The translations under genes and the position numbers were made by a program. A stretch of DNA of 14,359 nucleotides from Escherichia coli (lineage in GTDB: Bacteria > Pseudomonadota > Gammaproteobacteria > Enterobacterales > Enterobacteriaceae): assembly GCF_003334315.1 (NCBI RefSeq), contig NZ_QOWR01000078.1, one strand, 5' to 3'. Positions within the stretch are counted from its first letter, which is position 1. Every line of letters starts with the position of its first letter. Below, in pieces: positions 11,673 to 11,821 of this stretch. The notes below the pieces were generated by a model that saw nothing but the letters and a program-made list of their open reading frames with translations, was not told where the DNA came from and did no database searches.

Positions 11673-11684
11673 TAGGCCAGCACC

Positions 11685-11724
11685 GATGCCTGATGCGACG
11701 CTTGACGCGTCTTATCAGGCCTAC
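11685..11724. repeat. REP (repetitive extragenic palindromic) element
   Basis: GATGCCTGATGCGACGCTTGACGCGTCTTATCAGGCCTAC matches the classical enterobacterial REP consensus (GCCTGATGCGACGC...GCGTCTTATCAGGCCTAC) as I recall it. Confidence 0.8.
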
Positions 11725-11759
11725 GTATTTCCTGCAATTTATTGAATTTGCACAAATTT

Positions 11760-11796
11760 GTAGGCTGGATAAGGCGTTCACGCCGCATCCGGCATC
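11760..11796. repeat. REP element in inverted orientation relative to the first (BIME-like pair); a further partial REP-like segment at about 11805..11820
   Basis: GTAGGCTGGATAAGGCGTTCACGCCGCATCCGGCATC matches the complementary form of the REP consensus. Lies between the convergent genes dtpD and phr. Confidence 0.8.
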
Positions 11797-11821
11797 TGGG
11801 CTCGATTGCCTGACGCGTCTG

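Follow-up and report, generated by a model that had tools for sequence, protein, structure and literature searches.

The convergent genes dtpD and phr of Escherichia coli end facing each other across a short extragenic gap, and the locus raises the question of what fills this gap, what it does to the two transcripts that meet there, and whether the small transcript ES036 (CssrF) that lies within it is a gene in its own right. The best joint explanation, which is held with a probability of about 85%, is that the gap carries the K-12-type allele of a known atypical BIME, that this element forms a 3′-UTR hairpin shared by the two genes, and that ES036 is the tip of that hairpin. The window analysed here is the whole stretch of 14,359 nucleotides, in which dtpD occupies positions 10191–11672 on the + strand with its TAA stop codon at 11670–11672, and phr occupies positions 11822–13240 on the − strand with its TAA stop codon at 11824–11822. 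The gap between the two stop codons is exactly 11673–11821, which is 149 bp, and its whole sequence is identical to that of E. coli K-12 MG1655. The first-pass annotation had placed a REP/BIME cluster between the 3′ ends of dtpD and phr, and its gene names, coordinates and gap length were all correct. It had missed that the linker of the cluster is a curated Rfam family and the published transcript ES036/CssrF, and that E. coli is polymorphic for the presence of the element. The K-12 RefSeq feature table returned no repeat feature at the gap. The element is already known, both from a published BIME table and as ES036/CssrF, and its chimeric type, its allele polymorphism and the re-reading of ES036 are minor refinements. 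REP and BIME elements at gene 3′ ends are textbook features of E. coli, and the locus carries little weight for biology at large. The features of the gap and its borders are collected in Table 1.

Table 1. Features of the dtpD-phr gap and its borders, in window coordinates
Feature	Position	Strand	Basis	Details
dtpD stop codon and in-frame second stop	11670..11675	+	sequence, ORF list	tandem stops TAA and TAG
Long imperfect hairpin	11683..11799	RNA of either strand	predicted fold	z2 paired with y across the linker, ~115 nt
z2-type REP	11688..11724	+	degenerate z-type consensus, 0 mismatches	iREP orientation, CTAC end at 11721–11724; GCCTGATGCGACGCTTGACGCGTCTTATCAGGCCTAC
ES036 (CssrF), Rfam RF02751	11717..11759	-	Rfam match	43 nt, phr-sense, apical part of the long hairpin
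L-type linker	11725..11759		22-nt core CTGCAATWTATTGRATTTGCAC	35 nt, joins the z2 tail to the y tail
IHF-like core	11735..11747	-	motif match	ATTCAATAAATTG, 12/13 positions of WATCAANNNNTTR
y-type REP	11760..11793	-	consensus, 1 mismatch	+ strand GTAG at 11760–11763; − strand reads GCCGGATGCGGCGTGAACGCCTTATCCAGCCTAC
Short head-to-head linker	11794..11806		sequence comparison	ATCTGGGCTCGAT, ends CGAT
Truncated z2 REP remnant	11807..11821	+	direct repeats D1, D3	TGCCTGACGCGTCTG, 15 nt, abuts the phr stop codon
3′ end of phr: stop codon and final ~40 nt	11822..11861	-	allele comparison	co-vary with the BIME allele

Alignment to the REP consensus recovered both of the opposed REP units that had been claimed, and 200 shuffles of the window that preserved its dinucleotides yielded no match to the z-type or the y-type consensus. 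A consensus scan of the 14.4-kb window found no REPs besides the z2 and y units at dtpD-phr. The tetranucleotide GTAG/CTAC, whose conserved GTAG is a defining REP feature (PMC3333891), is present at the palindrome foot of both REPs, and both single-REP folds contain a stem mismatch; the z2 stem has 8 pairs, the mismatch and then 5 pairs, and the y stem is interrupted likewise. Apart from one loop T, the z2 REP is the same as that in the sucB-sucC BIME-2, and its own hairpin folds at −21.3 kcal/mol (z = −5.1). The partial third REP that had been noted is real as well, as the remnant repeats the head of the first REP (11687–11697) at 91% and its loop and 3′ arm (11700–11712) at 92%, and it is kept in the E. 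albertii-type orthologues. The CGAT that ends the short linker before the remnant also ends the linker before the first REP and the linkers before the z2 heads in the sucB-sucC BIME-2. The sequence is a dispersed repeat. With at most 40 places counted in each of 5,426 complete E. coli genomes, a 349-nt query had a median of 33 places per genome among the matches listed and the y arm alone a median of 37 among the matches listed; near-identical copies of the z2 arm occur at a median of 4 per genome.

Under the definitions of PMC3333891 the element is, judged from its layout of z2-L-y-short linker-z2 remnant, a chimeric "atypical" BIME. Atypical BIMEs mix y, z1, z2, L, S and flanking motifs and are usually present in multiple copies (PMC3333891), whereas the dtpD-phr element is single. 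It resembles BIME-1 (also RIP or RIB) in that a y and a z REP stand tail to tail across an L linker of ~35 nt with the same core, and in that it is a single unit between gene 3′ ends. When metagenome contigs were scanned for the 22-nt L core, the orthologous locus and about a dozen others came up. Most of these others are canonical BIME-1 with an outer motif, a 30-nt z1, L, y and an outer motif, while in a few a different long REP replaces z1. Canonical BIME-1 consists of y and z1 REPs (PMC3333891). The dtpD-phr element differs from the canonical copies in that its z unit is the 37-nt z2 and not the 30-nt z1 (TGCCTGATGCGCTACGCTTATCAGGCCTAC), in that the outer flanking motifs GACTGATGACAAACGCAAAAC... 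and ...AACAAAGCGCACTTTGTCA are missing, and in that an extra z2 remnant follows the y REP. Its outer flanks read TAGGCCAGCACCGA and TCTGGGCTCGAT, as against GACTGATGACAAACGCAAAAC and GAACAAAGCGCACTTTGTCA in canonical copies. Its z2 unit and the lack of the flanking motifs led to the rejection of a strict BIME-1 identity. The published BIME table lists the element among 78 BIME-1 at W3110 742499–742604 (PMC6379681 table DS3), an entry that was assigned to dtpD-phr through the sucB-sucC coordinate offset. The listed length is 105 bp, compared with 96–98 bp for most BIME-1 entries of that table, and this length is predicted by the replacement of z1 with z2. BIME-2 elements, such as sucB-sucC, which is named BIME-2 (PMC6379681), or REP325/naRNA4, share the y and z2 units with the dtpD-phr element. 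The right-side head-to-head junction of y, a short linker ending in CGAT and a z2 head is also that of sucB-sucC, and naRNA4 gives sub-threshold matches of 39.7 and 36.7 bits. In contrast to BIME-2, the tails at dtpD-phr are joined by L and not by a short S linker, and one unit with a remnant stands in place of a tandem array.

The 149-nt gap folds at −68.1 kcal/mol on the + strand and −66.2 kcal/mol on the − strand, whereas the energies of its two halves on their own add up to about −49 to −51 kcal/mol. Both strands fold far better than shuffled sequence, with z-scores of −6.1 and −5.3 and no equally stable fold among 200 shuffles. No promoter-like or terminator-like sites were found in 11400–12100 on either strand. 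Since neither convergent gene has a terminator before the BIME, the dtpD and phr transcripts would both run into it, and the z2 and y REPs would then pair in either RNA to give one hairpin of ~115 nt that lacks a U-tract. Such a hairpin would block 3′→5′ exonucleases and may favour Rho-dependent attenuation, and it would set stable 3′ ends and curb antisense read-through into the opposite gene. Because no U-tract follows the hairpin, the element is most likely a 3′-end stabiliser or attenuator and not an intrinsic terminator. By analogy with other REPs, we infer that the shared 3′-UTR hairpin stabilises the 3′ ends and attenuates read-through, a role that the phr-sense ES036 signal and the absence of any terminator support.

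The first-pass annotation had offered stabilisation and termination as alternatives for such elements in general, and the former fits better here. A bidirectional intrinsic (Rho-independent) terminator would suit strong hairpins between convergent genes, and true intrinsic terminators do occupy the same gap in Superficieibacter and Kluyvera, as plain GC-hairpins with a T-run. However, no stem followed by a T-run is present on either strand of either the long, BIME-carrying allele or the short allele described below, and ES036 reads extend beyond the y REP on the phr-sense RNA, which indicates that transcription passes the y hairpin. The intrinsic terminator was rejected and is exceedingly improbable at this locus.

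A further role has been proposed for REPs near stop codons. In the 2015 model of Liang, Rudd and Deutscher, a REP stem at most ~15 nt from the stop codon reportedly stalls ribosomes and lowers the amount of protein via tmRNA. The first strong REP stem pair in the fold, at ~11683–11685, lies 10–12 nt 3′ of the dtpD stop codon, and the hairpin stem of the short allele includes the phr stop codon, both of which would allow the REP to tune translation by stalling terminating ribosomes. In the long allele, however, the y REP stem lies ~24 nt from the phr stop codon, outside the reported range, and translation tuning is considered quite unlikely.

The shared 3′-UTR hairpin was also examined in divergent sequences. 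E. albertii and two metagenome contigs carry an orthologous element; the identity of the flanks to the window is ~90% and 94.5%. Both arms of the orthologues have CTGG/CCAG in place of CTAC/GTAG, and the pairing is kept. The change amounts to two adjacent compensatory pairs, which pair only in the inter-REP hairpin. The covariation score was reached by 12 of 500 shuffles, and the number of pairs changed on both sides was reached by 249 of 500. The compensatory change is suggestive only, because it is a single event in 5 sequences, and gene conversion within the element could be an alternative source of it. The same change means that the GTAG required by the REP transposase (PMC3333891) has been lost in the orthologues.

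The transcript ES036 was reported by Rau et al. in 2015 as 43 nt at MG1655 NC_000913.2 740211–740253 (+) (PMC4676190). In that study the reads were aligned by Bowtie 2, and a depth of 100 reads per base served as the cutoff for calling a transcript. The published coordinates map exactly onto the ES036 interval of Table 1, where the full RF02751 model matches with 75.1 bits against a gathering threshold of 37.6 (E = 1.5e-14) and 43 of 43 positions are identical. ES036/CssrF as described and the feature seen here are alike in locus, nucleotides, strand and coordinates; they differ in that the feature is interpreted here as the single-copy tip of a hairpin that the BIME forms in the 3′ UTR of phr, rather than as an sRNA gene standing on its own.

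An independent functional small regulatory RNA gene inside the BIME, to which the REPs would be incidental, would account for the detection of ES036 by RNA-seq (cumulative expression value 110.9; PMC4676190), its significantly lower level of 0.33–0.47x (2–3-fold) in 9 of 12 chemical stresses (PMC4676190) and its curation as RF02751. However, no transcription start has been mapped for ES036, and its processing from a longer transcript or 3′ UTR was suggested by the authors (PMC4676190). The lack of promoter-like and terminator-like sites around it also argues against a separate gene, as do its weak own fold (−5.5 kcal/mol, z = −0.31) and its 5′ border, which falls exactly at the edge of the multi-copy y REP. 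The 43-mer is single copy and was found in 1,957 of the 5,426 E. coli genomes, O157:H7 included; about two thirds of the genomes lack it, since the entire BIME unit is present or absent as an allele. The Rfam model scores above gathering on the L linkers of the katE-chbG BIME-1 and of at least 12 other unrelated loci, and it scores below gathering on the E. albertii orthologue. An independent ES036 gene is very unlikely on this evidence. We infer that phr read-through RNA carries the BIME hairpin and that ES036 is probably its tip, where reads can be mapped uniquely, a single-copy footprint of the phr 3′ UTR that would not require a separate gene. RF02751 is in effect a model of the BIME L linker repeat, and the annotation of its matches as sRNA genes will over-call, since many unrelated BIME-1 loci are matched.

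The other transcript of ~42 nt without a start site in PMC4676190, ES098, lies on the y REP of the canonical katE-chbG BIME-1, at positions 281–362 within the segment 1815900–1816500 of K-12 NC_000913.3, and the linker of this BIME-1 is matched by the ES036 Rfam model with 55.5 bits. With both ES036 and ES098 on BIMEs, two of the ten "selected novel sRNAs" of PMC4676190 are BIME pieces. The argument from mappability for ES036 is an indirect one, and simple mappability as a full account of all such short transcripts is weakened by ES098, which is on a multi-copy y REP and not on a linker. Additionally, one metagenome contig (L159, 2681–3071) contains three ES036-model matches 174 nt apart, which form a tandem array of L-linker BIME units, unlike the single-unit rule for BIME-1.

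At the DNA level the L linker would offer a site for IHF. L linkers of the BIME-1 type are reported to carry an IHF site and to bind IHF (PMC3333891, PMC2817692), and the linker at dtpD-phr is intact. The IHF motif is not above chance in the window, with 15 matches against 11.6 expected, and the case for a putative IHF site is made by homology to the L linker and not by the motif match alone. Gyrase binding, which the first-pass annotation had also listed for such elements in general, is not supported here. The dtpD-phr element has 0 gyrase cleavage sites in four Topo-seq conditions, as against 6, 4, 0 and 5 at sucB-sucC (PMC6379681 table DS3), and gyrase would not be expected to cut it. The BIME-1 class has fewer gyrase sites than expected, with 3 observed and 9 expected with ciprofloxacin (PMC6379681). 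A gyrase site was rejected for dtpD-phr given the absence of cleavage sites, gyrase binding being a BIME-2 property. A topological barrier between the convergent units, formed by an IHF-bent linker and cruciform-prone REPs, would suit the reported IHF site of this linker type, the position between convergent genes and the report that a BIME impedes supercoil diffusion (reviewed in PMC6907758). The chance-level IHF motif and the absence of gyrase cleavage speak against such a barrier, as does the short allele, which has no L linker at all, and a DNA-level role of this kind is judged unlikely.

The long (BIME) allele is present in 1,982 of 5,426 E. coli genomes (~36%), and it is nearly invariant among its carriers, 1,862 of which match at ≥99% identity. 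About 3,434 genomes (~64%), including Nissle 1917 and O111:H8, have a spacer of 41–42 bp instead. This spacer contains a single perfect palindrome of 14 bp (GCCTGATAAAACGC-loop-GCGTTTTATCAGGC), and the phr stop codon falls within its right arm. E. albertii also has the long allele, as does a lineage with ~94.5% identity to the window, and the short allele is found in a lineage with ~90% identity to the window. From this distribution, the two alleles are apparently old or exchanged between lineages. In some short-allele strains the second dtpD stop codon, TAG, is replaced by CAG or TAA.

The difference between the alleles is 108 bp and is bounded by the direct repeat GCYTGACGCGTCT, as the models of PMC3333891 would lead one to expect if a single BIME unit had been gained or lost within a REP that was already there. 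The origin of the polymorphism would be a 108-bp BIME unit that was gained by, or lost from, a pre-existing single REP overlapping the phr stop codon. A recent deletion of the long allele between 13-nt direct repeats was rejected as the source of the short allele, because the short palindrome GCCTGATAAAACGC...GCGTTTTATCAGGC and the adjoining end of phr differ at many positions from the deletion product. The last 39 nt of phr have 12 differences between the long and short alleles and only 3 between K-12 and E. albertii. Over the phr 3′ end (11822–11980), the last ~100 nt are far more diverged between the alleles than most of phr; the two final bins contain 8 and 12 differences. The encoded C-termini differ as well, with ...AYEAARKGK and ...AYEEARKGA in the two alleles, and the recombination breakpoint near the phr end seems to be different in E. 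coli and E. albertii.

The polymorphism could also be read as an old two-allele spacer system, with the z2-L-y BIME and the perfect palindrome each tied to a distinct form of the final ~40 nt of phr and kept or exchanged across Escherichia, in which the long allele alone yields a functional, stress-responsive ES036/CssrF derived from the phr 3′ UTR. If true, the repeat polymorphism would be regulatory and would affect the photolyase, the peptide transporter or trans targets; this combined reading is highly unlikely. The presence and absence of the BIME in natural strains provides a simple natural experiment on the effect of a BIME on two convergent mRNAs.

A selfish or neutral mobile repeat, that is, a REPIN-like doublet mobilised by a REP-associated Y1 transposase and without a host function at dtpD-phr, is a tentative alternative that is considered rather unlikely. 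The element resembles REPIN doublets with RAYT (TnpA-REP) in its two inverted REPs, which have the features required for binding and cleavage by TnpA-REP, the GTAG/CTAC and the mismatch in the stem (PMC3333891). The presence/absence polymorphism and the extra 108-bp unit, bounded by direct repeats inside a REP, are also as expected for a mobile repeat, and a unit-sized gain or loss of this kind fits the diversification and amplification models of PMC3333891. The same holds for other genera, in which the gap has plain terminators or no spacer. The window contains no gene for a REP-associated Y1 transposase. The E. albertii-type orthologue differs from REPINs in having no GTAG, and these lineages have retained the element after its loss with the pairing preserved, which argues against a repeat without function, as does the near invariance of the E. 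coli carriers. The mobile-repeat reading is compatible with the K-12-type BIME allele and its shared 3′-UTR hairpin, because origin and present effect are separate questions.

Beyond Escherichia, the same gap holds a canonical z1-L-y BIME-1 in Pseudocitrobacter, and in one related genus dtpD and phr abut without a spacer. That the gap is filled variously, or has no spacer at all, suggests a 3′-end slot whose content is dispensable, and any function of the BIME would be dispensable too, given the one related genus without a spacer and the 64% of E. coli genomes without the element. In Pseudocitrobacter faecalis (L013, ~3920–4110) the z1-L-y BIME-1 in the dtpD-phr gap has both outer motifs. Its flanks are unrelated to those of the Escherichia element, which suggests an independent colonisation of the same 3′-end slot.

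The ends of the window (1–453 and 13907–14359) are inverted copies of an IS1 end, 453 nt long and 99% complementary, one within the ybgD 3′ end and one ~160 nt upstream of ybgA, so that the 13.4-kb ybgQ...ybgA block is bracketed by inverted IS1. At the IS1 junctions, the best matches among the 5,426 E. coli genomes consist of two joined pieces, which in almost all of the matches listed cover a longer stretch of the record than the query itself, and the exact IS1 insertion points therefore look rare or absent in these genomes. Beyond ybgA (L004 5709–7242 and L005 5667–7239) the region varies between strains. K-12 and others have a remnant of the ISAs1-family (H-repeat) transposase ybfD there, EC571 adds IS66 genes, and Nissle 1917 runs straight into ybfA-kdpF. 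Compared across these strains, the ybgA side of the block is an apparent rearrangement hot spot.
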